This document shows positions 7,310 to 49,135 of a DNA stretch of 64,000 nt, in pieces (within the stretch, counting starts at the first letter, position 1; each line of letters starts with the position of its first letter). Location: the NCBI GenBank assembly GCA_965237675.1, contig OZ250150.1:2784001-2848000 (forward strand). The letters run 5' to 3'. The notes under the pieces were generated by a model, which saw only the letters and a program-made list of their open reading frames with translations, did not search any database and was not told where the DNA came from. Both the position numbers and the translations under genes were made by a program. This DNA is from Candidatus Latescibacterota bacterium (GTDB lineage Bacteria > Latescibacterota > UBA2968 > GCA-2709665).

Positions 7310-8150
7310 TCTCGCCAAAGAAAAGGGCCAAAAAGAACGGCGCCGCTCGGCGCGGGGCCGGTTTTTCCGCGAATCTCCTTAGTGGAGAAATCGTGAGACA
7401 TTGCCCTGAGACCGCCTGTGCATACACGAGGCGACACGGCTGGACGGAAAGGCGCGGAAAAACCCCCCACGCCACAACCGGGCGGCCGTGAGGCAGAACG
7501 GACGGGCTGCCTCGCAATTTGGCTTCGAACCGCTGTTGTCGCATTTCGCGACACCTGGAAGCGCGGGCGTAGCGCCGCCGTTGCATTTGTAGGGGCAACC
7601 CTCAGGGTTGCCCGCGTAAGGGCGAAGTTATCGGAAATTGTCTTGGCCAGGCCATATCGCAACGGACTCTCGCCGGGTTAAAGCGGACTGCTGTACGCCA
7701 ATAGCTGTTTTTGCTTCTCGCTTTCAGGAAGCCACGCCGGTTTCGAACGTGATGTGTTTCCAAAGCGAGATCAGAGCAGAGCGCGCGGTTCCGTCCAGCG
7801 CCGAGAACCGTTGTTCTTCCGTGGCTGACAGGGCAGCAGGTTCGGTGCGTCCCGTGAGGCGATTCGCGCTGTGTAGTTGCACGGCCCCGCGCCGAGCGGC
7901 GACTTTTGGTCCCGAAAATCAGTGAGAAGCAAGAGGCGAGAAGTGAGAAGGGTTGGTAACATTGTCCGATGACACCCCTGTATCCAGATTCTCGCCTACA
8001 AGAAGCCAAAGGGGTCTCGATTGTGGAACACAAACGCGGACAAGAGATCAGGGGGACGAGTGGTGCACTCTTACTTCTAACGTCTCACGTCTGGCCGCTT
8101 TTGGGAACCCGCCGGAGGCAGGGAATTTGGGGAGAAATGGATGTTGAATT
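7310..8150. repeat. Modular long inverted-arm intergenic element, copy A
   Basis: Perfect 20-bp IR 7341-7360/7882-7901; complementary anchors GCGAATC, TGCCCTG, GCTGGACGGA in both arms; 32-bp tail 8104-8135 identical to 12119-12150 and 48894-48925. Confidence 0.85.
7589..7613 (+). repeat. GTAG-type REP palindrome inside element A
   Basis: GTAGGGGCAACCCTCAGGGTTGCCC; near-identical to copies at 39889, 42662, 43043 and 49363. Confidence 0.8.
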
Positions 8151-8429
8151 TGCTTTTCTCCTTTTCCTTTGGCCCCCGCGCCGACGCGAGGAAACCGGAT
8201 CCCTCTCGCGGGCGTATAAATGTACAGGAGCGGAACCCGTCGATTCAGGCCACGATCCTGGACTCTCTGGCGTCCGGCGATGGCCAAAAGATAGGGGAAT
8301 CGATGTTCTCGCGAAAGACGAAAGCGGTCCGGTCTTCACACCTCGCCTTTTGAGTTGCCAGCGCGGGATTATTGCCCCTGTTTGGAAGCGCACGCCTTCG
8401 CGGGTGGCACGTCGAACGGAGGTGTTACG

Positions 8430-9278
8430 TTGACAACGGACACAGATCTGGCAGCGCTCCGGTCCTCAATGCGTTCATGGTGGTCGACCGCCGGTCATCG
8501 GTTTCTTCCGCCTGCGCTTATCACCTGCATTCTGATTGGCAGCCAGATTACGTTTGGAATTCTCGAGGGTTTTTCTAAAACCGCGTTGGCCATCTTGGTG
8601 GCAATTGGCGCGGAGGCGGTGCTGGGTTGGCTCGATGGGAGCCGCAAGCCGAATTTTGCAAGCGGGTACATCACCGGAATCAGCGTGGGGATTCTCATCC
8701 GGTCGCTTTGGCTCTGGCCCTACGCGCTTTGCAGCCTGGTGTCAATACTGTCCAAATATGTGATCCGTTGGCGCGGGCGGCATCTCTGGAACCCCTCCAA
8801 TCTCGGCGTGAGCGCGATGTTCTTCCTGGCGCCCGAGCTGGCGGCGGGGCTGAGCATTCAGTGGGGAAACGCCGTCTGGGTCATGCTGGTGATCTGGGTC
8901 TTTGGCTGGATGGCGGTCTGGCGGGTAAAGCGGTTGCATATCTGCCTGACGTACGTCGTATCGTTCCTCGCGCTGGGGTTTGTTCGAAGTCTTGTAACGG
9001 GGCAGGCGTATCTGGCTGGCATCGCGCCCATTACGGGGCCGATGTACCAACTGTTTATTTTCTTTATGATTACCGATCCAAAGACAACGGTGAAGACAAC
9101 GCGGGGACAGTGCGGGGTTGCGTTTACCGTGGCTGCGGTGGAGGCCGTGTTGCGTCTGCACGAACAGGTTTATGCCCCGTTCTATGCGCTATTCCTCGTG
9201 GGACCCCTCGCAAACGCCGCGGAAATCTGGTTGGCGACCCGTGCATCCGTACCGAAAAATAATGGAGCGCACGGGTAG
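8430..9278 (+). CDS. RnfD/NqrB-like (UnbU-like) multi-pass membrane protein
   Basis: Hydrophobic helices with SKYVIRWRGRHLWNPSN and FFMITDPKT motifs; TTG start after GGAGG. Confidence 0.7.
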   Translation: MTTDTDLAALRSSMRSWWSTAGHRFLPPALITCILIGSQITFGILEGFSKTALAILVAIGAEAVLGWLDGSRKPNFASGYITGISVGILIRSLWLWPYALCSLVSILSKYVIRWRGRHLWNPSNLGVSAMFFLAPELAAGLSIQWGNAVWVMLVIWVFGWMAVWRVKRLHICLTYVVSFLALGFVRSLVTGQAYLAGIAPITGPMYQLFIFFMITDPKTTVKTTRGQCGVAFTVAAVEAVLRLHEQVYAPFYALFLVGPLANAAEIWLATRASVPKNNGAHG

Positions 9279-9319
9279 ATCCGAAGGCCGATGAAGTCAT
9301 CAACTGCAAGGAGGTAGCG

Positions 9320-9631
9320 ATGAAAATCGAAATTAAGGGGAAACACTTTGAGGTTTCCAGCCGCTTGCGGGAATATATCGAAAAAGAAACAGAAAAGCTG
9401 AATCAGTATTATGAACCGATTCTGGACGCGCGATTGACGCTGGAGCGGGAGAATCGGATGTACAAGGTCGAGATTGTGGTGCACGTTCATAGCCATATCT
9501 TGAAGGCCACTGACGAACAGGATGTCATTCATCCCGCGATTGGCGGCGCCATCCACAAGATGGTTCGACAGCTCAAGCGGGCGAAGGAAAGACAGCGCAG
9601 GCCGCGCGTTCCCGCCCCGGACCCGGATTGA
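9320..9631 (+). CDS. hpf: Ribosome hibernation promoting factor (HPF/RaiA)
   Basis: MKIEIKGKHFEVSSRLREYIEKE...AIHKMVRQLKR; AAGGAGG RBS. Confidence 0.9.
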   Translation: MKIEIKGKHFEVSSRLREYIEKETEKLNQYYEPILDARLTLERENRMYKVEIVVHVHSHILKATDEQDVIHPAIGGAIHKMVRQLKRAKERQRRPRVPAPDPD

Positions 9632-9649
9632 TCACAGACAGGTGGAGCG

Positions 9650-9690
9650 AACCCCTCCCAGTGGCGGCAACCGTCCAGGGAGGGGTTTTT
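9650..9690 (+). terminator. Intrinsic terminator after hpf
   Basis: AACCCCTCCC...GGGAGGGGTT stem followed by T-run. Confidence 0.7.
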
Positions 9691-9777
9691 GTGTCTGCGT
9701 CGATAGTGTGGTTCCCGGGCAAGAAAACGAAACGCGCCTGTGCGCATGTTTCGATGCGCCGCCGGTTCGCTGTTCAA

Positions 9778-11232
9778 CTACGGGTCCTGCCGGGGAACGT
9801 CCGAACCTGGCGACGGGCTACTGACCTGGGGGCCGATCCAGGTCATCGAGAGATTGTAAGCCAGTACGGCGGCCGCCAGCCACCCGAGCAGGCCGGAAAG
9901 GCCGAATGCGGTCATCGAAGCGGGCAGGCCGTAGGGAAGGTTGTCAAGTATCCCCGCCAGGAGCAACGGTCCAATACGGCAGATCGCGGCGGCGGTGGCC
10001 AGACAGAAGGTCGCAAACACAAGGCCCGGAATCGCCACTTTGCGTCTGTGGAGAAATCCGGGCACCATTCGCGGGGCCATGCCCAGCAGCAGCAGGGTGA
10101 TAAAACCAGCAAGATAAGTGTGGCGCAACGCGTCGGGATCGAACGGAGAACCGAGCCGCAACAGGGCAAGGACGCCATCGACCAGTTCAACCGCGGCTGC
10201 CAGCGCCAGGAAGACGAATGCAGCATAAAGCAGCAACTCGAACCGGCCGAACTCGCCGTAGTCCGGCAGTCCGGGACGCGTGGAACGGCGGTCGGGCCCG
10301 GGTTCGCCAAGCCGATTGACGGTCCATGGCGGATACCACCGGAAGAGGATGTCCAGTTTCCAGATGAAGAGGAGCAGAATACCACCTCTTAAGACCTTTC
10401 CGATGGGCGATAGATGCGAAAGTAACGACGCAAAGGAAAGTTGGGTGAGATCCGCCAGGACGGGCAACTGGATGAGGATGAGCGCCAGGAGATAGACCTG
10501 GCCAAACCGGGCCACGGGCCAGCGGACGGCGGGCAGACGCAGGTAGAGCGGAAACGTGCGAACTGAAAAGGCCATCGCTGTCGGCAGGATGACAAATCCA
10601 ATGAAGAATTCAATGCCGAATCTGTTCCACGCAATGTGCAGAACCGGGTTGTCGCCGAAGCTCGCGTGAAGCGCGAGCGCGCCCGCGAGCAGGGAATACA
10701 ACCCCCATCCTGCAATCGATATTACCAGGAAGATCCGCACCGTCTGCAGGGCGGGGCGATTCGGCGCAGCGTGGCGCAAGGAGGTGACCAGCAGGGCGAG
10801 GTAACAATAGACGCCGGCGGTCTCCACCACCGCGGAGAGCCCCAGCGTCCATCTCAGGCCATCGTGAAACGGGTTTTCAACCCCCGCGGCAAGCAGCGGC
10901 TGGGAAACGGCGCGCAGCAGAATGCCGGTTGCAAGGAGGGAGAGAATCCACGCGGGAAGCCGGGGAAAGCGGAGCGGCGTACCGGCCAGACGAGGCAGGA
11001 AGTAGAGGCTGACTCCAATGATAAAGAGGCCGATCCAACCCAGGAGTTGGGCGTGACCATGGGCCTGGAGCATGGCAACCCACCAATCGCCCATGGAGAT
11101 CTGAAAGCCGATCAGCACGGCCAGAATGGCCGCATAGCCGAATCCGACCGTCAGCGCGACAAAAAGCGACGCCAGCACAAAGCCGAAGTGGAAATGGGTA
11201 TGGTGGGTTTTCTGGCTATCGGACAAGGTCAT
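9778..11232 (-). CDS. NnrS family membrane protein
   Basis: QAHGHAQLLGWIG, DALRHTYLAGFITLLLLGMAPRMVP; many TM helices. Confidence 0.75.
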   Translation of the reverse strand: MTLSDSQKTHHTHFHFGFVLASLFVALTVGFGYAAILAVLIGFQISMGDWWVAMLQAHGHAQLLGWIGLFIIGVSLYFLPRLAGTPLRFPRLPAWILSLLATGILLRAVSQPLLAAGVENPFHDGLRWTLGLSAVVETAGVYCYLALLVTSLRHAAPNRPALQTVRIFLVISIAGWGLYSLLAGALALHASFGDNPVLHIAWNRFGIEFFIGFVILPTAMAFSVRTFPLYLRLPAVRWPVARFGQVYLLALILIQLPVLADLTQLSFASLLSHLSPIGKVLRGGILLLFIWKLDILFRWYPPWTVNRLGEPGPDRRSTRPGLPDYGEFGRFELLLYAAFVFLALAAAVELVDGVLALLRLGSPFDPDALRHTYLAGFITLLLLGMAPRMVPGFLHRRKVAIPGLVFATFCLATAAAICRIGPLLLAGILDNLPYGLPASMTAFGLSGLLGWLAAAVLAYNLSMTWIGPQVSSPSPGSDVPRQDP

Positions 11233-11483
11233 TTCCTCGAATTGGGCCGAGAGACAATTCGAATTCGTAACGAATGTGGAGAAATGAATCTGTAGGCCGA
11301 TGTCACGGGCGAAAGCGTGGAGTCGAACTCCTTTGCCCTTACCCACGTGGCAATCGGCCGTTCTCGATCGATCGCGTACTCGTTAATTAAACCCGTTCAC
11401 GGGATTCGGCAACCCCTTTCGCACGATCGTTCGAGCATGTCGAGGCAATCGCCGATCTGCCCTCTATTCTTGTATTCTCCGTC

Positions 11484-12200
11484 CTTTTTCTTGTACGCCC
11501 AAAAAAAGACCAAAAAGAACGGCGCCGCTCAAACGCCGCGGGGCTGCTTTTCCGCAAATCGCCTCAACAGTGTCGACACGCATTCGTGCCCTTCGCCCCT
11601 ACGATCCGTCCCTGAACCATGGTGCTGGACGGATTAGCGCGGAAAAGCCCCGTCACCACAACCGGGCGGTCGGGAGGTTGACTGGGGAGGGCCGCCACGT
11701 GATTTGGCGTCGTACCGCTTTTCTCTTTTAGTGGGTCGGTGTCTTCACACTCTTCAACGGAAAGCCAGTTGGTTCTCGATCGCGAGCCCTGTCCGGAGGC
11801 CAACCAGAGCAGCGCGCGCGTTTCCGTCCATCTCCGAGTACAGGTATCGGCCTTCGTTGGCAGGGCAGCGGGCCATGTGCATACCATGAGACAGTTCGCG
11901 CTGTGCATATGGCAGGCTCCGCGCCGAGCGGCGACTTTTAAAAGCGGAAAGAAGAAAGAGGGAAGAAGGGAGAAGGGTTGGTAACTTTGTCATATGACAC
12001 CTTCGGAACTGGAGTCTGGCCAACTGGCAAAAAGAAGTGGATCAGGAAAGAAGGCGCGAAACCGGTGGGTGGCGGAGAGGTCTTCTCACCTCTCCCGTCT
12101 TTCGTCTCGCGGTTTTGAGGAACCCGCCGGAGGCAGGGAATTTGGGGAGAGGTTGTGACTTTGGAGTTCCTTTTCGCTTTTTCAATTTACGCCCTTTTTC
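11484..12200. repeat. Modular long inverted-arm intergenic element, copy B
   Basis: Same anchor order as copy A (CCAAAAAGAACGGCGCCGCTC, TGCCCT, GCTGGACGGA, CCACAACCGGGCGG, CAGGGCA, CCGCGCCGAGCGGCGACTTTT, 32-bp tail). Confidence 0.85.
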
Positions 12201-12314
12201 TAATGCGGATTAACATCGTGGGTCCTTATCGCTAACCGGTTTTGACTGTCTGCTGTACGCTGATAGCTGATCGCCGACCGCCTTTTGCTTGCTGCTTTTC
12301 GTCTGGATCTTTTT

Positions 12315-14651
12315 ATGAAACCTGAGATTCTGAATTCCATTGCCGTTCTGCTCCTGCTGAACCTCACGGGATGTGCGCCCAGGGAGACGGTGACCGTGTC
12401 AGGCGCGGTGAGCCGCCCTGGCGACTACGCGATTCGCCCTGGATGGGGTGTGCGGAACTATGTGACGACCGCCGGAGGATATCTGGCCGAGGCGGATACC
12501 GGGCGAGTCGCGCTGGTCCGGCATATGCGGGACAGCGTGTCCGTCCGGCAGCGGTGGAATGTAAGCCGATGGGCGGCATACGACGCTCCGGCCGCCATGT
12601 CGGGTGATCTGATCACCGTGCCGTTGAAGGCGTATCGGGTTCGGTTCGATACGGTGTTGGCGGTACGGAATCTGCGGCTGGAATGGGAAGATCGCATTTA
12701 CAGCATGGAGCTTGGAATGGTCGCGCTCGGTACGACATTGCGGGGGGTCGTGGCGGCGGTGTTCTTTGGGAATGGCGAGGCAATCCAGCAGGTTTCCGGA
12801 AAAGCAGCAGGCCCGTTTCAATACCTCTATCTCACGATGCATCCGGACAGATACGGCGTCCTGCTTCCGGCGCTCAGAGAGCCGGTCTCGGATCCAGAGG
12901 CGCAGGAGGACGCTGTGGCGCTGCATCGCTTTATGTTCCAGGCGTCGACGTTCAGGTCGGGCCGATTGGCGCATCTGCCACCCGCGGGTTATCTGCGGCT
13001 ACAGGCGGGCGTCTGGCTGAGGCCGAAAAATCCTTCCTATCCCGGTAGGGGGGTGCGCAAACGACATTACAGGGATGGCCGGGTATGGACGACGTTTCCG
13101 GACGGGAGGCAGCGGTGGCGGTATACGGACGGGCGGATTGTGATGCAGTTTCCCAATTACACGCGGGAAGTACGGTTTCCGGATGGTTCGGTTCGATTTG
13201 AAGATACGCTGGGAGGCGTGAGAACGTTGTATCCCGATGGGCACATGGTTTTCGAAGATGCCGACGGCAATCGGCACAGGGTGTATAAGGATGGACGGCA
13301 GGAATGGCGGCGTGCATCCGGAAACCGGATGACGATATATCCCGATGGGCGGCGGGTGCATCGCTTTTCCAGTGGAACGGTGCGTACGGTACATCCGACA
13401 GGTGCGGAACGGACGGTTTTCACGGACGGGACGCGGCATGTGCTTTATCCGGACGGTAGGGTGGAGATTGAGGTGCCGGGCGGCGCGCGGGAGACGCGCT
13501 ACCCGGATGGAAGTGTTTTTGCATTAACGCCCGACGGGCACCGGATCACGGTCTTCAAGGACGGCCGACAGTTTACGCAAATGAACGATGGGACCACGAT
13601 TGAACAGTTTCCGGATGGGCGAAAGATCCAGAAACATCCTTCCGGCGAGACGCTGGAGGTTTTTGCGGATCGTTCCAGGCGCACCGTTTATTCGGATGGC
13701 TCGGAAACGGTACGTCGTACCGATGGCGTACGTGTCGCAAGGCTCGCGGATGGGACCGTGATTGAGGAGTTTCCGGACGGTAGGATTGTACAGACCGATA
13801 CGTCGGGAGTTCGGCTCGAGGTTCTTTCTCCTGATCGATATGTAATTACGGACCAGGAGGGCAACCGCGTTGAGGCGCGTCCCGATGGAACATCCGAAAG
13901 GCAATTCGTGGAACCCTATCGGTACCGTGGTTGGATACGGCGCAACCTGATCCGGCTGGAGCGGGCACCGGAACGCATCTCTCCGGGCATGGTTGCGTTC
14001 GTCCGGGGATCGGCGGAGGATGCCGTGAAGAAGATGTCAATGGCCGTGTTCGCGCTTCCGGACGGGGATGTGCTCGATATGGAGATCGTGCTTGACGCGG
14101 GGCAATTTGACGGGACGTTGCAGGTAGGGGAGTCCGGATATTACCGGTTGCAGATCCAATGCGAGATGGAAAACGGCGATGCTGTAATGCTGGAAGATCG
14201 CATGTTGAAGGTTGGCAACCCGAAGCCTCTTGAGACGCCTGGTATCGAGGTCGCGCCGTTTCCCGGCGACGCGGCTGCAGGCCGGCGGCTGATGGATATA
14301 GTGAACGAGGCGCGCGGCAGGAAGGGTCGCATGATATTGGAGTGGGACCACGACCTGGCCTACGCGGCGTTGTCCCATTTGAAGGACATGCTGGCGTACG
14401 GCTCCGTTTCGCACTGGTCGCCAATGTATGGAGACCTGGTAAGCCGCCTGGAATGGCTGGACATTTCGTTTGAGGTCGCGCTGGAAAACCTGGCGACGGC
14501 GCCCTCGCTGGAGGAAGCTCACTGGCACCTGATGTTGAGCGCCGAACACAGGCGCAATATTCTGGACGCGCGTTTAACCCATATCGGAATCGCGGTGGCA
14601 CGCGAGCGGGGCCAGGTGTGGGTGGCGGAAATCTTCAAACGGAGAGAATAA
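12315..14651 (+). CDS. Lipoprotein with SLBB, Tcp10_C/G-box-like beta repeats and C-terminal CAP (SCP) domain
   Basis: LLLNLTGC lipobox; VTVSGAVSRPGDY...AGG (SLBB); about 30 xxxx(F/Y)PDG 9-mers; VNEAR...SH...ENLA...SAEHRRNILD...HIGIAV (CAP). Confidence 0.75.
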   Translation: MKPEILNSIAVLLLLNLTGCAPRETVTVSGAVSRPGDYAIRPGWGVRNYVTTAGGYLAEADTGRVALVRHMRDSVSVRQRWNVSRWAAYDAPAAMSGDLITVPLKAYRVRFDTVLAVRNLRLEWEDRIYSMELGMVALGTTLRGVVAAVFFGNGEAIQQVSGKAAGPFQYLYLTMHPDRYGVLLPALREPVSDPEAQEDAVALHRFMFQASTFRSGRLAHLPPAGYLRLQAGVWLRPKNPSYPGRGVRKRHYRDGRVWTTFPDGRQRWRYTDGRIVMQFPNYTREVRFPDGSVRFEDTLGGVRTLYPDGHMVFEDADGNRHRVYKDGRQEWRRASGNRMTIYPDGRRVHRFSSGTVRTVHPTGAERTVFTDGTRHVLYPDGRVEIEVPGGARETRYPDGSVFALTPDGHRITVFKDGRQFTQMNDGTTIEQFPDGRKIQKHPSGETLEVFADRSRRTVYSDGSETVRRTDGVRVARLADGTVIEEFPDGRIVQTDTSGVRLEVLSPDRYVITDQEGNRVEARPDGTSERQFVEPYRYRGWIRRNLIRLERAPERISPGMVAFVRGSAEDAVKKMSMAVFALPDGDVLDMEIVLDAGQFDGTLQVGESGYYRLQIQCEMENGDAVMLEDRMLKVGNPKPLETPGIEVAPFPGDAAAGRRLMDIVNEARGRKGRMILEWDHDLAYAALSHLKDMLAYGSVSHWSPMYGDLVSRLEWLDISFEVALENLATAPSLEEAHWHLMLSAEHRRNILDARLTHIGIAVARERGQVWVAEIFKRRE

Positions 14652-14754
14652 GTGGGAAAACGTGCGGAAAATGGCCGACAGCGTACATCAATGTGCGAAG
14701 TGACGATGCAAATGGTCTCGAATCGGTAAACCCGCGATTGGCCGCTTGTGAGGA

Positions 14755-16995: not shown

Positions 16996-17063
16996 AATAG
17001 GTTAGACGTCAAACGGCAGAAGCAAGAGGTCCATTGCTCTCCACGGACGCCGTTCCCGTCGCC

Positions 17064-18236
17064 TCACGCACCCTTGCCGAAGCTGCCGGCAAAAATGAGA
17101 AAATCGCTGAACTCGATGGCGCCGTCGCCGTCCAGATCGAACCGCGCGTCATATTCCGCATCTCCCTGGCTCAGCCCGAAGTTCCCCGCGAATAGCAGGA
17201 AGTCGGAAAATCCCACGGTTCCGTCGCCATCGAAATCGGGGTTGGCGGTTTGAGGAGTGATGTACGGCGACACATCCCAAAGCAGGATCGTGCCGTCGTG
17301 ACTGCCACTTGCCAGCGTCCTCCCGTCCGGCGAAAACACCACCAGAGTGACAGTGCCCGTATGTCCTGTGAGGGTGTGTCTTTCCTGTCCCGTGGCCACG
17401 TCCCACAACCGCACCGTATTGTCCCGATTGCCACTACCGCTTGCCAGCGTCCCCCCATCCGGTGAGAACACCACCGAAAGGACAGTGCCCGTGTGTCCTG
17501 TGAGGGTTTGTGATTCACGTCCTGTGGCCACGTCCCACAGCCGCACCGTATAATCGAATGTGCCGGCACTGGCCAGCGTGTTCCCATCGGGTGAAAACAC
17601 CACCGAAACGACAATACCGGAATGTCCCGTGAGTGTGTGTTTTTCCTGCCCGGCGGCCACGTCCCACAACCGCGCCGTTTGATCGGCACTACCGCTGGCA
17701 AGGGTCATTCCATCCGGCGAAAACACCACCGAAAGGACACTATGCGTATGACCTGCGAGTGTGTGTTTTTCCTGCCCGGTGTCCACGTCCCATAACCGAA
17801 CCGTATGATCGTAACTGCCACTTGCCAGCGTCCTCCCGTCCGGTGAGTACACCACCGAAACGACCCCGCGGGTATGTCCAGTGAGGGTGTGTTTTTCCTG
17901 TCCGGTGTCCACGTCCCATAACCGCACCGTACGATCACCACTGCCGCTTGCCAGCGTCCTCCCGTCCGGTGAAAACACCACCGACCGGGTAGTGCCCTTA
18001 TGTCCAGTGAGGGTGTGTTTTTCCTGTCCCGTGGCCACGTCCCACAACCGCACGGTGTCATCGAAACTACCGCTTGCCAGTGTCCTTCCATCCGGTGAAA
18101 ACACCACCGACCAGATCCAATCCGTATGACCCGTGAGGATGTGCTTTGCCTGTCCGGTGGTCAGCGCCTTCCCATCCTGTGAAAACAAGACGACGGCTAA
18201 AAGAAGAAGAAGGCTCAATATAGTCAGCCTTTTCAT
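17064..18236 (-). CDS. Secreted WD40 beta-propeller protein with C-terminal double EF-hand dockerin-like domain
   Basis: Signal peptide; 7 repeats LTGH...SVVFSPDGRTLASGS.D.TVRLWDV; DFDGDGTVGFSDF...DLDGDGAIEFSDF. Confidence 0.9.
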   Translation of the reverse strand: MKRLTILSLLLLLAVVLFSQDGKALTTGQAKHILTGHTDWIWSVVFSPDGRTLASGSFDDTVRLWDVATGQEKHTLTGHKGTTRSVVFSPDGRTLASGSGDRTVRLWDVDTGQEKHTLTGHTRGVVSVVYSPDGRTLASGSYDHTVRLWDVDTGQEKHTLAGHTHSVLSVVFSPDGMTLASGSADQTARLWDVAAGQEKHTLTGHSGIVVSVVFSPDGNTLASAGTFDYTVRLWDVATGRESQTLTGHTGTVLSVVFSPDGGTLASGSGNRDNTVRLWDVATGQERHTLTGHTGTVTLVVFSPDGRTLASGSHDGTILLWDVSPYITPQTANPDFDGDGTVGFSDFLLFAGNFGLSQGDAEYDARFDLDGDGAIEFSDFLIFAGSFGKGA

Positions 18237-18323
18237 TTGTTCCGTTTTGATGTATGTGAGCAGACAAGAATGTCCGCTCCACCCTCTCAAGCTCTCGTTC
18301 GATGTTTACATCACAGCCTATCA

Positions 18324-18407
18324 GGCTGCTCTCTTCGCCAATCCATCAGCTCCACCGCCGCACAATGGCTTTTGCCCCTGAGGCGATTCGCGGAAAAGCT
18401 GCCCCGC
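18324..18407 (-). repeat. Shortened single arm of the modular element family
   Basis: Minus strand GCGGGGCAGCTTTTCCGCGAATCGCCTCA...GCTGATGGATTGGCGAAGAGAGCAGCC resembles left arm of copy B (11538-11651). Confidence 0.6.
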
Positions 18408-38584: not shown

Positions 38585-38638
38585 CATCACTTTGCCCGAT
38601 CACGCACCGATTTCTGTTGTGTGATCCGGGAACGGAAT

Positions 38639-38710
38639 GGGCCCGTAGCTCAGGGGTAGAGCAGCGGCCTTTTAAGCCGTTGGTCGAAGGTTCAAATCCT
38701 TCCGGGCTCA
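38639..38710 (+). tRNA. tRNA-Lys(TTT)
   Basis: Acceptor GGGCCCG/CGGGCTC, D-arm TAGCTCAGGGGTAGAGC, anticodon arm GCGGC-CTTTTAA-GCCGT, T-loop GGTTCAAATCC; CCA not encoded. Confidence 0.96.
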
Positions 38711-38749
38711 TTTAACTTTCTCAAAATAAATTACTTGTATTATAAAACG

Positions 38750-38778
38750 GCCCGGATCGCAATAGATCGGGCTTTTTT
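38750..38778 (+). terminator. Terminator after tRNA-Lys
   Basis: GCCCGGATC...GATCGGGC followed by T6. Confidence 0.6.
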
Positions 38779-38955
38779 CTTTCTCATATCGCGACGGTTC
38801 CACGATGACGCGAAACGCCAGCGTTTTTTGAGTCTTCTAAGGTACCATATCCCATTTTAAAAGTCAAGGCGATTTCAAATTCCGTTTGCGGGCATCTCAA
38901 CGATCCGCGTCGATTCCACCGGCGCTCCTGGTCATCGGAATTTTTCACGAAAGAC

Positions 38956-39003
38956 TTGACAGGACGACATGAATTCGTTATTGTTGTTGAATTAGATCAA
39001 CAA
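38956..39003 (+). promoter_or_regulatory. cysH promoter with adjacent inverted-repeat operator
   Basis: TTGACA-17-TATTGT followed by TTGTTGA-N6-TCAACAA (38984-39003). Confidence 0.55.
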
Positions 39004-39027
39004 TATAGTAATTAAAGCTGGCAGAGG

Positions 39028-39783
39028 ATGTGCATGGGTATCGATAGTGAGAAGATCGGCCGACTGGCCGATGCATTCGAGGGAACGGGGCCGGAAGAAA
39101 TTCTGGCGTGGGCCTGGCGGGACATGGGTCCTGCCGTGGCAATGAGCACGGCCTTCGGCGCGAGTGGCCTTGTGATGTTGGATATGGCGCAGCGGGTGGC
39201 GCCGGACCTGCCGGTTTTTACAATCGACACCGGGTATCTGTTTCCTGAAACGCTGGCACTTAAAGAGCGTATCGAGGCGCGTTACGATATTCGGATCGAG
39301 TCCTTGCAGCCGCGTTTGAGCGTACCCGAGCAGGATCGCGCCTGCGGCCGCGATCTGTACAATCGAGATCCGGATCGATGTTGCCGGATGCGCAAGGTGG
39401 AACCGCTGCAGCGGAAATTGGCAGGCCTGAACGGCTGGATTGCCGGCCTTCGGAGAGACCAGTCTGGAACGCGGGCCGGAGTACGTGTCGTGGAAGGTTA
39501 CCGAACCAGCTGCGGTCGGGACGTCACCAAGATCAATCCGCTTGCAGCATGGACGCGGAAGCAGGTGTGGGATTACATCATTGAAAATGATCTGCCGTAC
39601 AATTCGCTCATGGACCGGGGCTATTCCAGCATCGGCTGTTGGCCCTGTACCCAGCCGGCGGCGCCTGGCGCCGACGAGCGCGCAGGACGCTGGGCGGGCA
39701 CGTCCAAATCAGAGTGCGGCATACATACGCCGTTGATGGAGGTCGAAATACCGGAAGCGGAGGGGCAATTGGCAGCGGGATAG
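39028..39783 (+). CDS. cysH: APS/PAPS reductase
   Basis: IDTGYLFPET, CC..RKVEPL, GYSSIGCWPCT, RAGRW, ECGIH. Confidence 0.93.
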   Translation: MCMGIDSEKIGRLADAFEGTGPEEILAWAWRDMGPAVAMSTAFGASGLVMLDMAQRVAPDLPVFTIDTGYLFPETLALKERIEARYDIRIESLQPRLSVPEQDRACGRDLYNRDPDRCCRMRKVEPLQRKLAGLNGWIAGLRRDQSGTRAGVRVVEGYRTSCGRDVTKINPLAAWTRKQVWDYIIENDLPYNSLMDRGYSSIGCWPCTQPAAPGADERAGRWAGTSKSECGIHTPLMEVEIPEAEGQLAAG

Positions 39784-39888
39784 GCGGTGCCGAATAGACA
39801 GCGGTCCTGGACCGAACCGGATCTTCATTGGCGGAAGCCTGCAGGCTTCCGCCTCTGTATTTCGTCCGGAGAACCCGCTTTTGGATCT

Positions 39889-39948
39889 GTAGGGGCAACC
39901 CTTGTGGTTGCCCACGCGATGGCGCAGACGTCGGTCAATTGACGTCGC
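39889..39948 (+). repeat. GTAG REP with 35-bp extension (direct repeat of 42662-42720)
   Basis: GTAGGGGCAACCCTTGTGGTTGCCCAC...GGCGCAGAC.TCG....ATTGAC.TCGC. Confidence 0.8.
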
Positions 39949-40210
39949 TATCTGCTGTGACGCACTACGAAAGCGGAGGAAGCTCTACAAGGACTGGCAC
40001 AGACCGGGATGGCGCAGCGGAAGATTTCACAGGATGAGCATTTCATTGGGAATCGAGAACTTGTCGCGGAAGGGCGCCGACTGTGTTTTCGAGTGTGTTC
40101 AGCGGACAGAATAGAGAACGCCGATAGGGATCAGACGCAAGAATCTCGACAGGCAGGATGACTGCTTCTACGATATCAGCGGGTACAATCACCCTCGAGA
40201 CAAGATGAAG

Positions 40211-42235: not shown

Positions 42236-42549
42236 TTTAGGCCTCGAATCACGATGTAGACCAACTTTACCTTTCGATGCAGATATGCAACGTGTTGCAC
42301 AAGTGACTAAGATAGTTCGCCTGGCGTGTCGGGCCAAGTGTATTTTTCGCGCATTAGTTGGACTCATAGTAAGAATGTACACTCCCGGCGTCCAATGCCC
42401 TGTGATCTGCGTGGTCAGATTTTGGGAAGTCCATCTGGCTCAGAACGCCGGTTGCCACGAGCGGTTTGAACTGGATGTTGGGCTGCCAGTTGATCTTAGC
42501 GCAGAAAGTCCGGATTTCATGTCAGACGCCTCAGGTGTCGCCGTTCTAT

Positions 42550-42614
42550 GCTGATGGTGAGCGGCGCGGTTTTTGCCGCGAACAAACCCCTATCACCACA
42601 ACCGGGCGGGCGAC
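42550..42614 (+). repeat. 65-bp direct repeat identical to 48533-48597 (fragment of modular element)
   Basis: GCTGATGGTGAGCGGCGCGG...CACCACAACCGGGCGGGCGAC present at both sites. Confidence 0.9.
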
Positions 42615-42661
42615 TGGAGTACCCATGAAGCCGCAAGCCATTGCGCGCCGCGTTTGTGTTT

Positions 42662-42900
42662 GTAGGGGCAACCCTTGTGGTTGCCCACATAACGGCGCAG
42701 ACTTCGCTGATTGACATCGCGGGCCCGTATCGCTGACTCTACGCCGAACGAAATCTGTAGGGGCGACCGGCCGGTCGCCCCTACCCCAATCGGTCGAAAC
42801 GCCCCGATGATGTCGAAGAGGCTCTGTAGCCGGTGTAGGGCTAATCATAGTCGCACGCGTCGCATTGTGCGACTCTTTGGAACGCGGGCGTCCCGCCTGC
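42662..42900. repeat. Cluster of REP-like palindromes of several classes
   Basis: GTAG REP 42662-42686; perfect 28-bp palindrome GTAGGGGCGACCGGCCGGTCGCCCCTAC 42757-42784; AGTCGCAC...GTGCGACT; GCGGGCGTCCCGC. Confidence 0.75.
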
Positions 42901-42970
42901 CCAATTATCGGGCAATATAGCGAAAGGTTCTCGTGGGTTCTGTGGTGTATGTTCACGCTGACCGCTGCCT

Positions 42971-43161
42971 GCTGATCGCTGTCGTTCCCCTTGTGTCTTT
43001 GTGCCTTCGTGCGAGTCGGTGTTCCGCGCCGTCGTTGCATTTGTAGGGGCAACCCTTGTGGTTGCCCTTCTATTGACTTCCGCCGTTTACGCTTGACAAA
43101 GCCGGTCGTCCGTATATATTGTTTTTTGCTGCTTGGTCCCGGGCAACACGGGGCCATTTTT
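42971..43161 (+). repeat. Duplicate of cysM upstream region (REP plus promoter), matches 49289-49480
   Basis: Near-identical sequence including REP 43043-43067 and TTGACA-16-TATATT (43093-43120). Confidence 0.9.
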
Positions 43162-43199
43162 GTACGTGATCCGGGGGTTGCAATTGAGCACCGAACGGC

Positions 43200-43333
43200 G
43201 TTCCCAATCCGCTTCCTGTTCCCTCAAACGACCTGCCGGCCAACACAACATACGGATCAACGCACAATGGCGCATCTGTTTCCGATGGACGGACGATGGG
43301 GCGTGCGACGTGGAGATCGAAGACTACCACTGA
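43200..43333 (+). pseudogene. HigB (RelE-like killer) toxin remnant, C-terminal part only
   Basis: AGQHNIRINAQWRICFRWTDDGACDVEIEDYH* directly before higA; no N-terminal half. Confidence 0.75.
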
Positions 43334-43344
43334 GAGGCGCTAAC

Positions 43345-43650
43345 ATGAACGCGAAGAATGGGATGAGACCGGTTCATCCGGGTGAGATACTCGGCGAGGA
43401 ACTCGACGCGCTCGGTCTGTCGGCCAACGCCTTGTCGGAGGCGCTGGGAGTGCCGGTGAACCGTATCACGATGATTCTGAACGGCCAATGTGGGGTGAGC
43501 GCGGACACGGCGTTGCGGCTGGCGCGCTACTTCGGCACGACGCCTCAGCTATGGCTCAACCTGCAAAAGTCGTGGGAGCTTCGCAGGGCGGAGATCGAGG
43601 CGGGACGCGATATCGCTGAAAGCGTAACGCCCCGTCAAACGGTGGCTTAG
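43345..43650 (+). CDS. higA: HigA family antitoxin
   Basis: RPVHPGEIL...SADTALRLARYFGTTPQLWLNLQ. Confidence 0.92.
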   Translation: MNAKNGMRPVHPGEILGEELDALGLSANALSEALGVPVNRITMILNGQCGVSADTALRLARYFGTTPQLWLNLQKSWELRRAEIEAGRDIAESVTPRQTVA

Positions 43651-43687
43651 ATAAGTGACGGCCAAATGCCTTCCATTGACTACACCA

Positions 43688-44037
43688 GGCCATTTTTATA
43701 GGTGATCGGGGTGTATTCCACCCGCACGACCGGGAAGAGGTTGCTTGTGGGGCATCAGGTTGGCAGTACGGACATCGGTTCCCGAATTCAGCCGACAATT
43801 GTCGACGCCATCGGCAAGACGCCGCTGTTGCGCATCCGGAAGTTTGCGGATCACCTGGATGGCGTTGAGATATACGCGAAAATGGAGATGTTCAACCCGG
43901 GCGGATCGGTGAAGGACCGGCCGGCGTTGCAGATGATCCAGGATGCCATCGCGTCCGGTGAGTTGACACCCGATCGGGTGATTATCGATTCGACGTCCGG
44001 CAATACGGGAATCGCGTACGCGATGATCGGCGCGGCG
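43688..44037 (+). pseudogene. Truncated 5' copy of cysteine synthase cysM
   Basis: 350-bp colinear copy of 49471-49820 (roughly 90% identical by eye), breaks after AMIGAA. Confidence 0.92.
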
Positions 44038-44078
44038 AATCACAGCTATCAAAGTTGCATAGGGAATGACATATTACC

Positions 44079-44513
44079 ATGACGCATGCGGCTAGTTTTG
44101 GAATAAGAACTGCTCATGACTTTTTGCGTGAAATGGTCATACCTCAATACGAAGAATTCATTAAAAAGAATTCATCTTCACGCCATGCTCTGATAGCAAT
44201 TATACTTTCATGCCATATGTACGAATGGGTTCACCGTAGGAAGTTTTGTCGTCAACATTTCGAGGCGACCTATCCCGATGATCGAGGCTTGGCGGAAAAA
44301 TTCGATCTTGCAAGAAAAATCACAAACGGAACGAAGCACTTTAGGTCAACGATTAGATCGCAGACACAATCGGGGTTTTCGTCCGGTTTTGGCGACGCCT
44401 TCTCTCGGCCCCTAAACGTGACATTGGATGACTGAAACAGGCTTTCTGTAGACGTTTTATTGCGTGATATTGTGGATTTTTGGAAAAGACAGGACGAACG
44501 TGGTGTTCTCTGA
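44079..44513 (+). pseudogene. Putative HEPN-like protein with internal TGA at 44433
   Basis: AT-rich; RKITNGTKH motif; frame continues NRLSVDVLLRDIVDFWKRQDERGVL* after the TGA. Confidence 0.5.
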
Positions 44514-44639
44514 GGTTGTTCCATCGCCGCCGTGCCCGTTTTGTTTCTGCAACGGTGAATCTCGCTGCATCGCCGGATGGGCAAACGCGCATTGTAATGC
44601 CACATGCGGCGCGTATCGCATCGCGCCACAGTCGATATC

Positions 44640-44761
44640 ATGAAGGTCAAGCATAAGGGCTTGCGGGCGAGTGGAGCGTAACCGTCACCGGCAACTGGCG
44701 TGTGGTGTTCCGCTTCGAGGACGGCGAGGCCGTGCACGTGGACCTGATCGATTATCACTGA
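44640..44761 (+). pseudogene. Second HigB-like toxin with internal deletion
   Basis: MKVKHKGLRA joined out of frame to WSVTVTGNWRVVFRFEDGEAVHVDLIDYH*. Confidence 0.8.
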
Positions 44762-44780
44762 CTGGAAGGGAGTGTTGACC

Positions 44781-45095
44781 ATGAACGACATTGAAAGCAA
44801 TCGTGTCGGCACCATGCTGAACCCTCCGCACCTGGGCGAACTGATCCGAGAGAGCATGGAAGAGGTTGGCTGGAACGTCACGCAGACGGCGGCGCGCCTC
44901 GACTGCGAGCGCGGCACGCTATCGCGCTTGTTGAACGGCAGGACGGGGGTGTCCGCGAACATGGCGCTGGCGCTGGAGGATATCGGCTGGGGCACCGCCG
45001 ATCACTGGATGCGGATGCAGGCGAGTTATGAGCTTGCGCAAGCCCGCCGGGTACGTGGCGACGCTAAGCGCCAGGCGGATCTGAGATTCGCGTGA
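44781..45095 (+). CDS. higA: HigA family antitoxin (second)
   Basis: MLNPPHLGELIRE...LSRLLNGRTGVSANMALALE...WMRMQASYEL. Confidence 0.88.
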   Translation: MNDIESNRVGTMLNPPHLGELIRESMEEVGWNVTQTAARLDCERGTLSRLLNGRTGVSANMALALEDIGWGTADHWMRMQASYELAQARRVRGDAKRQADLRFA

Positions 45096-45103
45096 ACCCG
45101 GAC

Positions 45104-45167
45104 TTGCGGCGGTGCGCTTTTTTGGGATAACGCCGCACCTATGGCTCAACCTGCAAAAGACTTGGAG
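45104..45167 (+). pseudogene. Short remnant of a third higA
   Basis: ...FFGITPHLWLNLQKTW; CTATGGCTCAACCTGCAAAAG shared with higA at about 43549. Confidence 0.65.
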
Positions 45168-45357
45168 GCTCCGCTGGCGGTAACTTGACGCGGACTACGA
45201 GAATCTGAAATTGAATGACGAACACACGCCCCGGTTCGTCGAATAGATTCGTCGGATGTTCCCGAACACGCCTTCACCGGCAGCGGTCGACGGATCGCTG
45301 CCGCTTAACACGACTTGCTATTTGGACCATTCAATAATGTCTTTTGTGGGGACACCG

Positions 45358-47208
45358 ATGACTAACAGAACGATGAAAAGGCGTTTTGAAATCGACGCGG
45401 AACACCTACCCGATCTGCCCGGAATGATGTTGGTCACGGTCGAGGCCCTTAGGGATTTGGGCGGTTCGGCCACCATTCAGGAACTGGACGAAAAAGTGAT
45501 CGAACTGGAGGAGGTGACCGAAGCCGAGCAATCATTCACTATGCGGGATAACGCAAATCTGCCGCGGGTAAACTACTACCTCGCTTGGGCGCGTACCAAC
45601 CTTAAACGCGGCAATGCACTGGCGAATCCATCGCGTGGAATATGGGAACTAACAGAAAGCGGTTCGGTGATCACAACGCGTGCTCAGACTGATGCAATGT
45701 GGGAACAGGTAATACAGGACCTAAATGAACAGACACGCGTCAAGGAGCAGACCAGTAAAGTCTTAAACGAAGCAGACGATGATTCAGTCGAAGAAAGATT
45801 AGAAGGAACTGAGGATTGGACGTCAACGGCCTGGTACCGCGAGCGTTTCGGTACGGCCGATGTTTGGACTATCGCGCCGGGCGAGGGCGCACGGTTTTGG
45901 GGAGAGTTTCTCGAATTCGGTATCGCGGCAATTGGTTGGGACCATCTTGGAGACCTTAGCGATTATGCATCTAGGGAGGATATCCACAGCGCGTTGATAG
46001 AGAGCGGCGCAGGACAAAACCCCTACAACCAGTCGCTTGCCGCTTGGGAATTCGTTCACGAGATAAAGATCGGAGACATTGTCCTTGCCAAAAAAGGCCG
46101 CCGCGTCATTCTAGGCTGGGGAAAGGTTACCGGAGATTACACCTACTTGCCTGAACGGGCAGAATATCAAAGCGTCAGGACTGTAGATTGGCATCCGTGC
46201 CGTTCACCGATCAACCTAAAGGACCAGATCACGACCAAAACACTGACTCGATTCACGGCCTACGAAGATTGGTTGCGATTTGTATTCGACTTGATAGATG
46301 CCGATGTTGAAGATGCGGATCTTAGACCCAGCAGCGTGGAACCCGAATCCTTCAATATTGCCACCGCACTTGGTGACCTTTTTTTGGAAGAAACTCAGTT
46401 CCAGCGTATCCTCGACTCCATTGCGCTCCGCAAGAATCTGATTCTTCAGGGGCCACCGGGGGTCGGCAAGACGTTCATCGCGCGACGGATCGCATGGTGC
46501 TTGTTGAGGCGCGAGGACTCACGGTTCATCGAGATGGTGCAATTCCATCAGTCCTATGCCTACGAGGACTTCGTGCAGGGCTGGCGGCCGACGGATACCG
46601 GCGGTTTCACCCTGCGTAATGGCGTGTTCTTCGAATTCTGTAAGCGCGCGGAGCACCAGCCTGAAAAGAACTTCGTCTTCATCATCGACGAGATCAACAG
46701 GGGCAATCTGTCCAAGATATTCGGGGAATTGCTCATGCTGATCGAAGCGGACAAACGCGGCCCGAAGCATGCGATTGCGCTGACGTACAGCAATACCGGT
46801 GAGCGCTTTAGTGTCCCTGACAACGTGCATATTCTGGGACTTATGAATACCGCCGATCGCTCGCTCGCAATCGTCGACTACGCTCTGCGCCGCCGGTTCG
46901 CATTTGAAACGCTTCTGCCCGCATACGGCACTGGGAAGTTTCGGGATTACCTGCGGAAAGCGGACGTCGACCAAGTCCTGGTCGACCGTGTTAACAGGAA
47001 CCTAACTGAGCTCAACAAGCGTATCCGTGACGACAAGGATCTCGGACCTGGTTTCCAGATCGGGCACAGCTACTTTATGCCAGAGGAGGCAGCGGACGAC
47101 GAATGGTACCTTGGCATCGTCGATACGCAGGTTGAGCCCCTGTTGCGAGAGTACTGGTTCGACCGTCCCGAACAGGTGGATGAACTGGTGGAGAAATTGC
47201 GGCAGTGA
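45358..47208 (+). CDS. mcrB: McrB-like AAA+ GTPase with N-terminal Mrr_N and EVE/PUA-like domains
   Basis: QGPPGVGKT, FHQSYAYEDFVQG, IIDEINRGN, MNTADRS; N-terminal LRDLGGSAT...LAWARTNLKR...SRGIWELT; start uncertain. Confidence 0.88.
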   Translation: MTNRTMKRRFEIDAEHLPDLPGMMLVTVEALRDLGGSATIQELDEKVIELEEVTEAEQSFTMRDNANLPRVNYYLAWARTNLKRGNALANPSRGIWELTESGSVITTRAQTDAMWEQVIQDLNEQTRVKEQTSKVLNEADDDSVEERLEGTEDWTSTAWYRERFGTADVWTIAPGEGARFWGEFLEFGIAAIGWDHLGDLSDYASREDIHSALIESGAGQNPYNQSLAAWEFVHEIKIGDIVLAKKGRRVILGWGKVTGDYTYLPERAEYQSVRTVDWHPCRSPINLKDQITTKTLTRFTAYEDWLRFVFDLIDADVEDADLRPSSVEPESFNIATALGDLFLEETQFQRILDSIALRKNLILQGPPGVGKTFIARRIAWCLLRREDSRFIEMVQFHQSYAYEDFVQGWRPTDTGGFTLRNGVFFEFCKRAEHQPEKNFVFIIDEINRGNLSKIFGELLMLIEADKRGPKHAIALTYSNTGERFSVPDNVHILGLMNTADRSLAIVDYALRRRFAFETLLPAYGTGKFRDYLRKADVDQVLVDRVNRNLTELNKRIRDDKDLGPGFQIGHSYFMPEEAADDEWYLGIVDTQVEPLLREYWFDRPEQVDELVEKLRQ

Positions 47209-48245
47209 ACACCAAGACAATTCCAATCGCCAACATCTACTACCTTTTGTGCTACGCCTGGAGCCATGTCGATGAGCGAGATGTGGTGCGGCTGGAGCAA
47301 CTGGAAGGGCTGGAGAGAGTTTACGATCTGCTGGGCAAGGTGCTTGCAGCAGGGACCGTCCGTCTGATCCGCAGAGGCATTGACCGAGGGTATCGGGAGG
47401 TGCGTGAGGACTTCGCCGGCATACGCGGAAAGATCGCGGTGGGGGAGACCGTGAAACGGGCACTCCGCGCCCGCGGACGGGTCGTTTGCGACTTCGAGGA
47501 ACTGTCCCGCGATGTCCTGCACAACCGCATCCTCCGCTCCACGCTCGGATCCCTCCTCCGACTTCCGAACCTGGATTCCGACGTGTACGCCGAGGTCCGG
47601 AATGCATACACCAAGTTGAACGACGTTCGCGTGTTGCGCTTAAGTCGCCGGCTTTTCCGACAGGTGCAACTCGACCGCAACCGGCGGTACTATCGATTCC
47701 TGTTGTCGGTTTGCAAACTCATCCATGAACAGTTGCTGGTAGATGAACGATCCGGTGACGCGAGGTTCACCGACTTCAGCGAAGATCGAATGGAGAAACT
47801 GTACGAGGACTTCATAATCGAGTTCTATAAGCGTGAGCAAGACCGTTATCGGGTCAACCATCGCGGGCGCGCCATCGCTTGGGCCGACGAAGGCACGCCC
47901 GATCACCATCGCTTGAAACTTCCGAAAATGGAAGCCGACGTCATACTGGAAGCGCCGGATCGGCGAATCATCATGGACGCGAAATACTACCGAGAGGCGT
48001 TTGGCGGCCGCTACGGCGGGAAGCTACATTCTGACAATCTTTACCAACTCCTGGCCTATCTAAGAAATCGCGAAGCAACCAGGGCGCCCGGGCCGAGACA
48101 CGAAGGAATCCTGCTCTACCCGACAGTCGACGCGTCGGTGAAGGTCGATGTCTGCCTGGAGGGTTACTCGATCCGTGCTCGGAGCATTGATCTTGCTCAG
48201 AACTGGCGCAACATCCATCGTGATATGTTGAAGTTGATCGCGTAG
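47205..48245 (+). CDS. mcrC: McrC PD-(D/E)xK restriction nuclease subunit
   Basis: IPIANIYYLLCYAW, EADVIL...IMDAKYY, NLYQLLAYL; GTGA overlap with mcrB. Confidence 0.9.
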   Translation: MNTKTIPIANIYYLLCYAWSHVDERDVVRLEQLEGLERVYDLLGKVLAAGTVRLIRRGIDRGYREVREDFAGIRGKIAVGETVKRALRARGRVVCDFEELSRDVLHNRILRSTLGSLLRLPNLDSDVYAEVRNAYTKLNDVRVLRLSRRLFRQVQLDRNRRYYRFLLSVCKLIHEQLLVDERSGDARFTDFSEDRMEKLYEDFIIEFYKREQDRYRVNHRGRAIAWADEGTPDHHRLKLPKMEADVILEAPDRRIIMDAKYYREAFGGRYGGKLHSDNLYQLLAYLRNREATRAPGPRHEGILLYPTVDASVKVDVCLEGYSIRARSIDLAQNWRNIHRDMLKLIA

Positions 48246-48328
48246 TTGGGTTTGCCCTCTGCATGGGTGAGGATGAAGCCGAGGCGCTTCAACTCGTCGA
48301 GCGACAGGAACCGATCGCGCGGCTTGGC
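48246..48328 (-). pseudogene. Tyrosine recombinase (integrase) fragment
   Basis: Manual translation AKPRDRFLSLDELKRLGFILTHAE resembles the R.RFLS.(D/E)EL.RLG segment that precedes the catalytic domain of phage-type integrases. Confidence 0.55.
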
Positions 48329-48336
48329 CGCTGTTG

Positions 48337-49135
48337 CGCCGCTCGGCTGCTCTTCCGCGAAACGTCACAACAGTGTCGACACGCTTTGGTGCCCTTCGTC
48401 CCCTCCAGCCGTTCCTGAATCGTGGTGCTGGACGTTAAAGCGCGGAGAACCAACCGCCGACCTCGCAAGGGGTGGCATGTTGTTCCGGTGTTTATACGGG
48501 ACAACAGGGGACGCTTGGTGTTGGCGTTCGAGGCTGATGGTGAGCGGCGCGGTTTTTGCCGCGAACAAACCCCTATCACCACAACCGGGCGGGCGACCAC
48601 TGACCACTCGCCGCTGACTGTTGTTTTTCTCTTTGTGTTTTCGTGTGAGCCATTTCCGTACTCTCGTCAGCAGGAAGCCAATAGAACATCGGCAGCGATG
48701 CCCATCATGAGGTCAACCAGAGCAGAGCGCGTAGTTCCGTCCGGCACTGAGCACCGTTTTCCACTTTCGCTCGCAGGGCAACCGATCATGTGGAGCCGCC
48801 AGCGAGATTCGCGCTATCAGCGAGATTCGCGCTATGCATATGGCAGGCTCCGCGCCTAGCGGCGACTTTTGGTTCCTTTTGGTCGCATCAAAAGGAACCC
48901 GCCGGAGGCAGGGAATTTGGGGAGAGATTGTGAATTTGGATTTTTTTCGATTTTTAATTTACGCCCTTTTTCTTTCTCGCCATGAAAAAGCGCAAAGGAG
49001 CGCACTGCCCAGACGCAGCGGGTAGCCTTTTCGCGAATTACCGCTGTAGATAGTTCGTGAGACTCTGCCCTGCGGGCTATGTAGGCATTTCTGGACAGCT
49101 CTACTGAACGAACGAGCGCGGAAAGGCCCCTTCCC
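48337..49135. repeat. Modular element copy C plus tandem left arm of a further copy (C2)
   Basis: Left arm 48337-48450, right arm 48718-48872, 32-bp tail 48894-48925, new left arm 48970-49130. Confidence 0.85.

Follow-up and report, generated by a model that had tools for sequence, protein, structure and literature searches.

A probable family of modular, non-coding intergenic repeats with a fixed internal frame in Candidatus Latescibacterota

Among dispersed bacterial repeats, those nearest to the elements described here are the mosaics of repetitive extragenic palindromic (REP) sequences, or bacterial interspersed mosaic elements (BIMEs), of enterobacteria, which in E. coli are bound by the host proteins IHF, gyrase and Pol I; RIME, ERIC/IRU and BOX are similar intergenic mosaic repeats. 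Correia/NEMIS, RUP and Nezha are examples of miniature inverted-repeat transposable elements (MITEs). REP sequences, and REPINs with their RAYT transposases, are defined by a short imperfect palindrome of 20-40 nt, often tagged with GTAG or CGTC. Here we analyse a 64,000-nt stretch of a Candidatus Latescibacterota bacterium (contig OZ250150.1, positions 2,784,001 to 2,848,000; hereafter the window, G000:C1:2784001-2848000), which belongs to a 5.6-Mb genome, G000, of 58% G+C and 99.9% completeness. It carries several copies of a repeat of ~182 nt, the L unit, described as a "left arm" in the original prediction made from this DNA. We judge it somewhat better than an even chance that the L units form a lineage-restricted family of modular, non-coding intergenic DNA repeats of BIME/MITE-like character. 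An uncultured phylum without genetics thereby gains a well-defined repeat family that numbers ~100 copies in each genome and combines three covarying helices with a rigid internal frame, and ~1% of the intergenic DNA there is arranged as exchangeable modules.

The L family resembles REP (PMC3733652, PMC3116915, PMC8266576) and BIME mosaics in being many-copy and intergenic, in assembling hairpin modules into varying mosaics, in keeping its stems by compensatory change, in varying in presence among relatives and in carrying terminator-like hairpins. It differs in its size of ~180 nt, in its 83-nt loop, long-range helix and three motifs at fixed spacing, in the absence of a RAYT link, and in that shared sites hold different subfamilies; moreover, its 13-bp hairpin bears no GTAG or CGTC tag, tagged hairpins being present only as neighbouring modules. 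With REPINs and their RAYTs (PMC3116915) it shares inverted doublets of a repeated unit, intergenic location and populations of diverged copies. However, the arms of the window's composite copies A, B and C differ in their variable segments and cannot pair mutually, no RAYT gene is flanked by L units, and there is no dominant master sequence. Like MITEs, L units are small, non-coding and dispersed, form composites with long imperfect inverted arms, and show insertion polymorphism between species. Unlike MITEs, most copies are solo arms rather than inverted-repeat pairs, and the interior of the arms varies freely in sequence yet keeps a set length; no autonomous parent was found. Flanks of filled and empty sites were too diverged for a target-site duplication to be read. 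By their defining features, the L family does not qualify as a REP-RAYT, REPIN, bridge-RNA or omega-RNA system, and it fits the description of a MITE only partly. What sets it apart from known dispersed modular repeats is the rigid internal frame, the fixed-length subfamily segments and same-site replacement.

No account of such repeats in Latescibacterota was found by a full-text literature search, within the portions of text that it exposed. The original prediction had recognised no named family, and Rfam agreed: at gathering thresholds it returned only a tRNA over the whole window, and at E<=10 over 7200-8400 only two chance-level matches.

Anatomy, covariation and fixed spacing of the L unit

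An iterated nhmmer search seeded with the four left arms of the window returned 82, then 98, then 101 copies in G000, with E-values down to 5e-47. The family is thus far beyond chance. Sixty-three of the 101 copies score above 120 bits, and 61 of these, near-complete over the profile, were aligned; ~25 matches are of a shorter, inverted right-arm type and the remainder are partial. BLAST with copy A detected the family in all 14 genomes of the genus and in both of a sister genus. One further genus matched weakly, and the total for the phylum is 18 of 168 genomes. L units break assemblies, and they can mislead searches for non-coding RNAs or CRISPR-like arrays in such metagenome-assembled genomes.

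Read 5' to 3', the L unit consists of a perfect 13-bp hairpin (H1), an A-run, a GC hairpin (H2), a T-run and a 12-bp helix (H3), the last formed by pairing of the T-run after H2 with a downstream A-run. H3 closes an 83-nt loop that holds three fixed motifs, CGCGAA, TGCCCTG and CTGGACGGAAT, and the stretches between them are the variable segments V1 and V2. A hairpin and T-run of this kind match the pattern of an intrinsic terminator (GC stem-loop followed by T-run), which is predicted on both strands of H2 in copy A and on the minus strand in copy B.

Covariation was assessed on an alignment of 47 sequences, made up of 2 window copies and 45 of 76 units from relatives' loci; the 31 units left out mostly have a ~30-nt insertion in H2. 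In this alignment 92.6% of helix cells were paired. Both sides of a pair had changed in 92 cells, against 23.7 +/- 5.5 after shuffling (none of 500 shuffles reached 92), and slid controls gave at most 6 such cells. One pair of H1 occurred in three states (CG 21, UA 17, GC 8), and pairs of the closing helix H3 alternated similarly (UA 27/CG 20, GC 34/AU 11, CG 38/UA 9). G-T and A-C pairs were equally rare, with 5 and 8 respectively among 1427 helix cells, so that no transcribed strand is marked and no strand asymmetry is apparent. The absence of strand asymmetry leans towards a constraint at the level of DNA rather than RNA.

The spacing of the loop motifs varied by at most 1 nt in nearly all copies. 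Spacers were counted in G000 only, where a profile search, rather than a spaced pattern, had supplied the copies; the count is thus not circular. Relatives' loci were excluded, because the pattern used to fetch them already sets the 34-nt and 5-nt spacers. In the 58 of 63 L units that could be parsed, the distance from CGCGAA to TGCCCT was 28 nt in 46, 27 nt in 3 and 29 nt in 9, and that from TGCCCT to GGACGG was 34 nt in 52 and 35 nt in 4, the other 2 being spurious regular-expression parses. Right-type arms (18 of 25 parsed) kept a slightly shorter frame, of 27 nt in 15 for the former interval and 32-33 nt in 17 for the latter. The sequence between the motifs was less conserved. Helices and anchors had a mean pairwise identity of 0.83-0.90, whereas V1 had 0.48 and V2 0.43. 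Clustering the 61 aligned copies by V identity at 80% gave 43 clusters, none with more than 8 members. At such divergence, general indel-to-substitution ratios would predict several indels between any two copies were length unconstrained. Because these are lacking, we conclude that the length of V1 and V2 is under constraint. The fixed segment lengths first noticed in four arms therefore hold genome-wide, mostly to within 1 nt, and the structural constraint proposed from them is borne out by three covarying helices and by spacing kept within 1 nt despite near-saturated substitution.

V1 and V2 showed no sign of taking part in the fold. Shuffling them left the fold energy unchanged (mean z -0.06 over 61 copies), mutual information revealed no covarying columns within them, and no helix in fixed register was found there, the best candidate being 47% paired against 36% expected. 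Neither did they match their surroundings: the mean longest match to their own 300-nt flanks was 8.5 nt, compared with 7.7 nt for the flanks of other copies. Searched against the genome outside other copies, 116 V queries gave 8 weak matches (E 0.004-0.024), which is the chance level. The plasmid and phage collections were searched with the whole of composite A (841 nt) and gave no match. As part of the explanation we prefer, V1 and V2 are thus a shade more probably than otherwise subfamily-specific filler, neither pairing partners nor guides.

Genomic placement, mosaics and turnover

Genes were predicted with a crude caller based on open reading frames and codon usage (3,980 genes, 83% of the genome), and 100 of the 101 copies lie outside them. 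The 63 copies above 120 bits are flanked by tandem genes in 38 cases, convergent genes in 11 and divergent genes in 14, which mirrors the background, where tandem, convergent and divergent gaps make up 64%, 15% and 20% of intergenic length. L units show no bias of orientation relative to neighbouring genes, nor any replication-strand bias (30 vs 33). Right arms are split 17 vs 8 by replication strand, a split that in our reading reflects how the downstream gene is oriented. About half of the units (51 of 101) lie between 1.0 and 2.0 Mb, one fifth of the chromosome. Near 1.546-1.549 Mb, at least 3.5 kb without a predicted gene is built of repeat modules.

L units are flanked by further repeat families, with at least four types of upstream module and several downstream types, the latter including GTAG-tagged REP-like hairpins. 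L units combine with an inverted, shorter right arm and a 32-bp tail, with GTAG-tagged hairpins and with flank modules into the mosaics A, B and C. Composite copies have inverted arms of ~150 nt, and the ends of A are complementary over 25 nt at 92%; most copies, however, are solo units. A consensus fold of the 3' flank of the unit gave no structure. Three GTAG-bearing 11-14-mers occur in 66, 56 and 27 copies genome-wide, often beside L units. Within the window, hairpins of this kind (family D4) lie at 7589-7614, 39875-39933, 42648-42706 and 43029-43087. Runs with a GCTGAC/GCTGAT-like hexamer period were seen near repeat modules and downstream of several tails, as at G000:C1:1556118-1556190 and 4586062-4586130.

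The original prediction took each composite for a single long element ending in the tail. The copies turned out instead to be mosaics of separable modules, and the tail is one of them, because two related genomes, G012 and G008, retain it at the orthologous site while lacking the arms. Tail copies in G000 number 22 at <=3 mismatches and 23 at <=4. Among these 23, a right-type arm precedes the tail in 20 (read off coordinates), and a gene in the same orientation follows in 16, at a distance of 102-1181 nt. Genes so placed include those for an ABC ATPase, RsmG, a DHDPS-family enzyme, a GHMP kinase, an H+-pyrophosphatase, ribosomal protein S6, an aldo-keto reductase, MTHFR, GGT and a pyridoxal phosphate (PLP) enzyme. 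As these are unrelated housekeeping genes, a tail regulon was rejected; the tail may be a promoter-like module. In the window it runs into a further ~25 conserved nucleotides (8104-8170, 12119-12180, 48894-48960). An L unit follows within ~50 nt of the tail in 6 of the 23 copies, copy C of the window included.

Comparison with related species revealed turnover of units. G012, G008 and G010 all lack composite A (~7257-7921) at the orthologous site. When units in relatives' loci were mapped onto G000, 35 of 81 had syntenic flanks; a G000 unit lay in the same gap in 15 of these 35 and none in 20. At shared sites the orientation was the same in 14 of 15 cases (binomial p ~0.0005, the sites being not fully independent). 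V1 identity there was 0.25-0.68 and V2 identity 0.29-0.65, apart from one pair at 1.00, so that syntenic units differ as much as random members of the family. By comparison, four-fold degenerate sites of neighbouring genes were 0.54-0.80 identical (pooled, 0.665 over 9,255 sites). A non-syntenic copy in G000 was closer than the syntenic one in every one of 11 cases. Since the best of ~60 copies is here set against a single copy, the test demonstrates no more than that the syntenic copy is not the nearest relative. Pairs at shared sites also differ outside V, in the H1 loop, the H2 insertion and the upstream module. Because these subtype characters differ as well, the pattern points to replacement of whole units and not to hypermutation specific to V, and we read the shared sites as cases of whole-unit replacement, presumably by re-insertion or ectopic conversion. 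Four runs of DNA reads showed cross-mapping from other repeat copies alone, with no clean joint across an empty site; at the B site, one read joint skipping 884 nt was present in two runs of one sample.

Candidate machinery and rival explanations

The elements are non-coding and non-autonomous, as the data support. According to the explanation we favour, the L unit would be recognised as a folded single strand or cruciform together with its spaced motifs, the reader being a putative trans-acting host or mobile-element protein. Copies would be gained, lost and overwritten via re-insertion or ectopic gene conversion between copies, and overwriting would keep site and orientation while swapping the subfamily. 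The GC hairpin with its A- and T-runs may serve as a two-way intrinsic terminator, as a predicted side effect. Fixed-length segments together with replacement at the same site and in the same orientation are unusual for REP, BIME or MITE families, and point to a putative recognition machinery.

Several observations weigh against this explanation. Paired changes in inverted repeats suit a folded RNA equally well as DNA, and the intergenic placement of the units rests on crude gene calls. No target-site duplication could be read at empty versus filled sites, the flanks there being too diverged, and no trans-acting enzyme or autonomous parent was found. The orthologous pair formed by L062 and the G000 unit at 1140667 is 100% identical in V1+V2 and ~98% in the core, although it sits in poorly conserved intergenic DNA and the neighbouring four-fold sites are 74% identical. 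Further, among 41 G000 units compared with a small sample of relatives' units, 4 had a cross-species V match of >=0.9 and 12 one of >=0.8. V is in these cases more conserved than neutral filler should be; it could be functional or selected within subfamilies, or DNA could have been exchanged recently between species. The L062 pair and the cross-species matches keep more novel readings alive.

Genes of known mobile systems were sought across the genome. No match to PF01548 (IS110) or to PF07282 (TnpB) was present, so that the neighbouring IS110 recombinase or TnpB/IscB gene expected of an IS110 bridge RNA or an IS200-IS605 omega RNA was not found. G000 does encode three Y1/RAYT-like proteins, of which one scores 99 bits on NF047646 (cut-off 80) and the others 71 and 64; the genes lie outside the window, at G000:C1:1781391-1782152, 1532791-1533420 and 1677052-1677681 (L111-L113). 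Each gene has short palindromic repeats of its own around it, belonging to two further types, and these constitute REP systems separate from the L units. No inverted pair of units in G000 encloses a transposase, and none was seen in relatives, checked only over 80 loci of up to 8 kb each. Two inverted pairs in G000 enclose a single gene, in one case an H+-pyrophosphatase (by Pfam) and in the other a gene judged by eye only not to be a transposase.

Mobilisation by a RAYT/HUH enzyme, one of the two candidates of the original prediction, does not square with these data. L units would in that case be REPIN-like or IS200/IS605-like non-autonomous elements, moved as single-stranded DNA by a tyrosine transposase that recognises their hairpins. 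The hairpin-rich architecture, the three Y1/RAYT-like genes, one of them above the NCBIfam RAYT cut-off, and the GTAG-tagged hairpins within the mosaics would all suit such an origin. Yet the Y1 genes keep company with different REPs and not with L units, and of the 14 family-bearing genomes of the genus just 7 yield a Y1_Tnp match, against 2-32 matches in genera that lack the family. There is also no leading/lagging strand bias, the L unit is about five times the length of a REP, and the arms of a composite, differing in V, cannot form a long hairpin of REPIN type. We therefore regard this origin as very unlikely. The other candidate, a guide-like RNA, fared little better. It survives as the proposal that the units are multicopy structured small RNAs, with the helices as scaffold, H2 and its U-run as terminator and V1/V2 as functional recognition windows, guide- or decoy-like. 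Covarying helices, terminator-like hairpins and fixed loop lengths speak for it, as does V where its conservation exceeds the synonymous rate, namely in one orthologous pair and several cross-species pairs. Against this, there is no common promoter or upstream module, since upstream flanks are of several unrelated types, and neither an orientation bias toward or away from genes nor a G-U excess on either strand was detected. V adds no structure, has no targets in its own genome beyond the 8 weak matches, and is unrelated in sequence at most shared sites; nor did composite A find a plasmid or phage match or the family an Rfam match. Small RNAs are, on this evidence, an unlikely explanation.

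An element that does not move at all has about the same standing. L units may be host cis-acting elements kept by selection at each site, as two-way terminators, insulators or platforms for nucleoid or topology proteins, and H2, terminator-like on both strands, helices and anchors that stay 83-90% identical while V decays, and the sites shared between species with conserved orientation are what one would expect of them. But the 14 of 63 copies between divergent genes need no terminator and gene contexts mirror the background, G000 has no unit at 20 of 35 syntenic sites, the shared sites hold different subfamilies, and half of the copies cluster in one fifth of the chromosome. We consider such a role improbable. 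More speculative, and highly doubtful, is a reading of V1 and V2 as a two-part address code, in which the segment pair of each subfamily would tell a trans-acting recombinase, or a nucleic-acid-guided system, at which intergenic sites and in which orientation to install or overwrite units. An address code would explain the same-site, same-orientation swaps of subfamily, the conservation of V above the synonymous rate within a subfamily across species and the strict lengths; if true, non-coding DNA would here be exchanged in a programmable, cassette-like manner.

Copies and other features of the window

The arm layout and coordinates that had been proposed were found again in the window, as was an exact 32-bp tail after each of A, B and C (Table 1). 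All four left arms have the expected layout, with the qualification that the arm of C, taken to be complete, is truncated.

Table 1. Repeat copies and their parts in the window (positions are those of the window)
Feature	Coordinates	Strand	Details
Copy A, L unit	7306-7483	+	Full length, 153.5 bits; nhmmer genome match 2791306-2791483; left half of 5' hairpin degenerate (alignment)
Copy A, GC hairpin H2 between A-run and T-run	7340-7361	.	Covaries; predicted terminator-like sites on both strands, - 7353-7340 and + 7347-7361
Copy A, closing helix, 5' half GGTTTTTCCGCG	7360-7371	+	Layout, covariation
Copy A, V1, subfamily-specific segment	7382-7401	+	Layout, alignment
Copy A, central anchor TGCCCTG	7402-7408	+	Layout, alignment
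Copy A, V2, subfamily-specific segment, 30 nt	7409-7438	+	Layout, alignment
Copy A, anchor GCTGGACGG (7439-7447), 5-nt link and closing helix, 3' half	7439-7464	+	
Copy A, closing helix, 3' half CGCGGAAAAACC	7453-7464	+	Covariation
GTAG-tagged REP-like hairpin, family D4, mid composite A	7589-7614	+	
Copy A, right-type arm, inverted shorter variant	7782-7913	-	nhmmer genome match 2791913-2791782; spacers: TTCCGTCCA at 7789-7797 and CAGGGCA at 7829-7835, 31 nt between
Tail motif after A, 32 bp	8104-8135	+	Exact; kept at the arm-less orthologous sites of G012 and G008
Copy B, L unit	11485-11667	+	136.3 bits; orthologous G012 site holds a different subfamily
Copy B, right-type arm	11815-11939	-	nhmmer
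Tail motif after B	12119-12150	+	Exact
Copy C, truncated L unit	48297-48454	+	Profile positions 14-165, 63.9 bits; directly after McrC gene
Copy C, right-type arm	48728-48897	-	nhmmer
Tail motif after C	48894-48925	+	Exact; next L unit follows
Copy C2, solo L unit	48968-49141	+	91 bits

An inverted 36-nt fragment at 18370-18405, which the profile search did not report, is 78% complementary to the region of H2 and the closing helix in copy A. Direct repeats at 42961-43981 and 49279-49764 (83-93% identity) bracket a ~6-kb block that holds an Mrr_N-AAA_5 (McrB-like) gene and the McrC gene (45256-48245), and the block looks like an inserted defence island. Judging from coordinates, the left direct repeat appears to contain a duplicate of the start of the PLP-enzyme gene (49485). 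Finally, seven tandem 126-nt repeats, 61-79% identical to the reference copy, occupy 17271-18200 within a minus-strand open reading frame (17064-18290).

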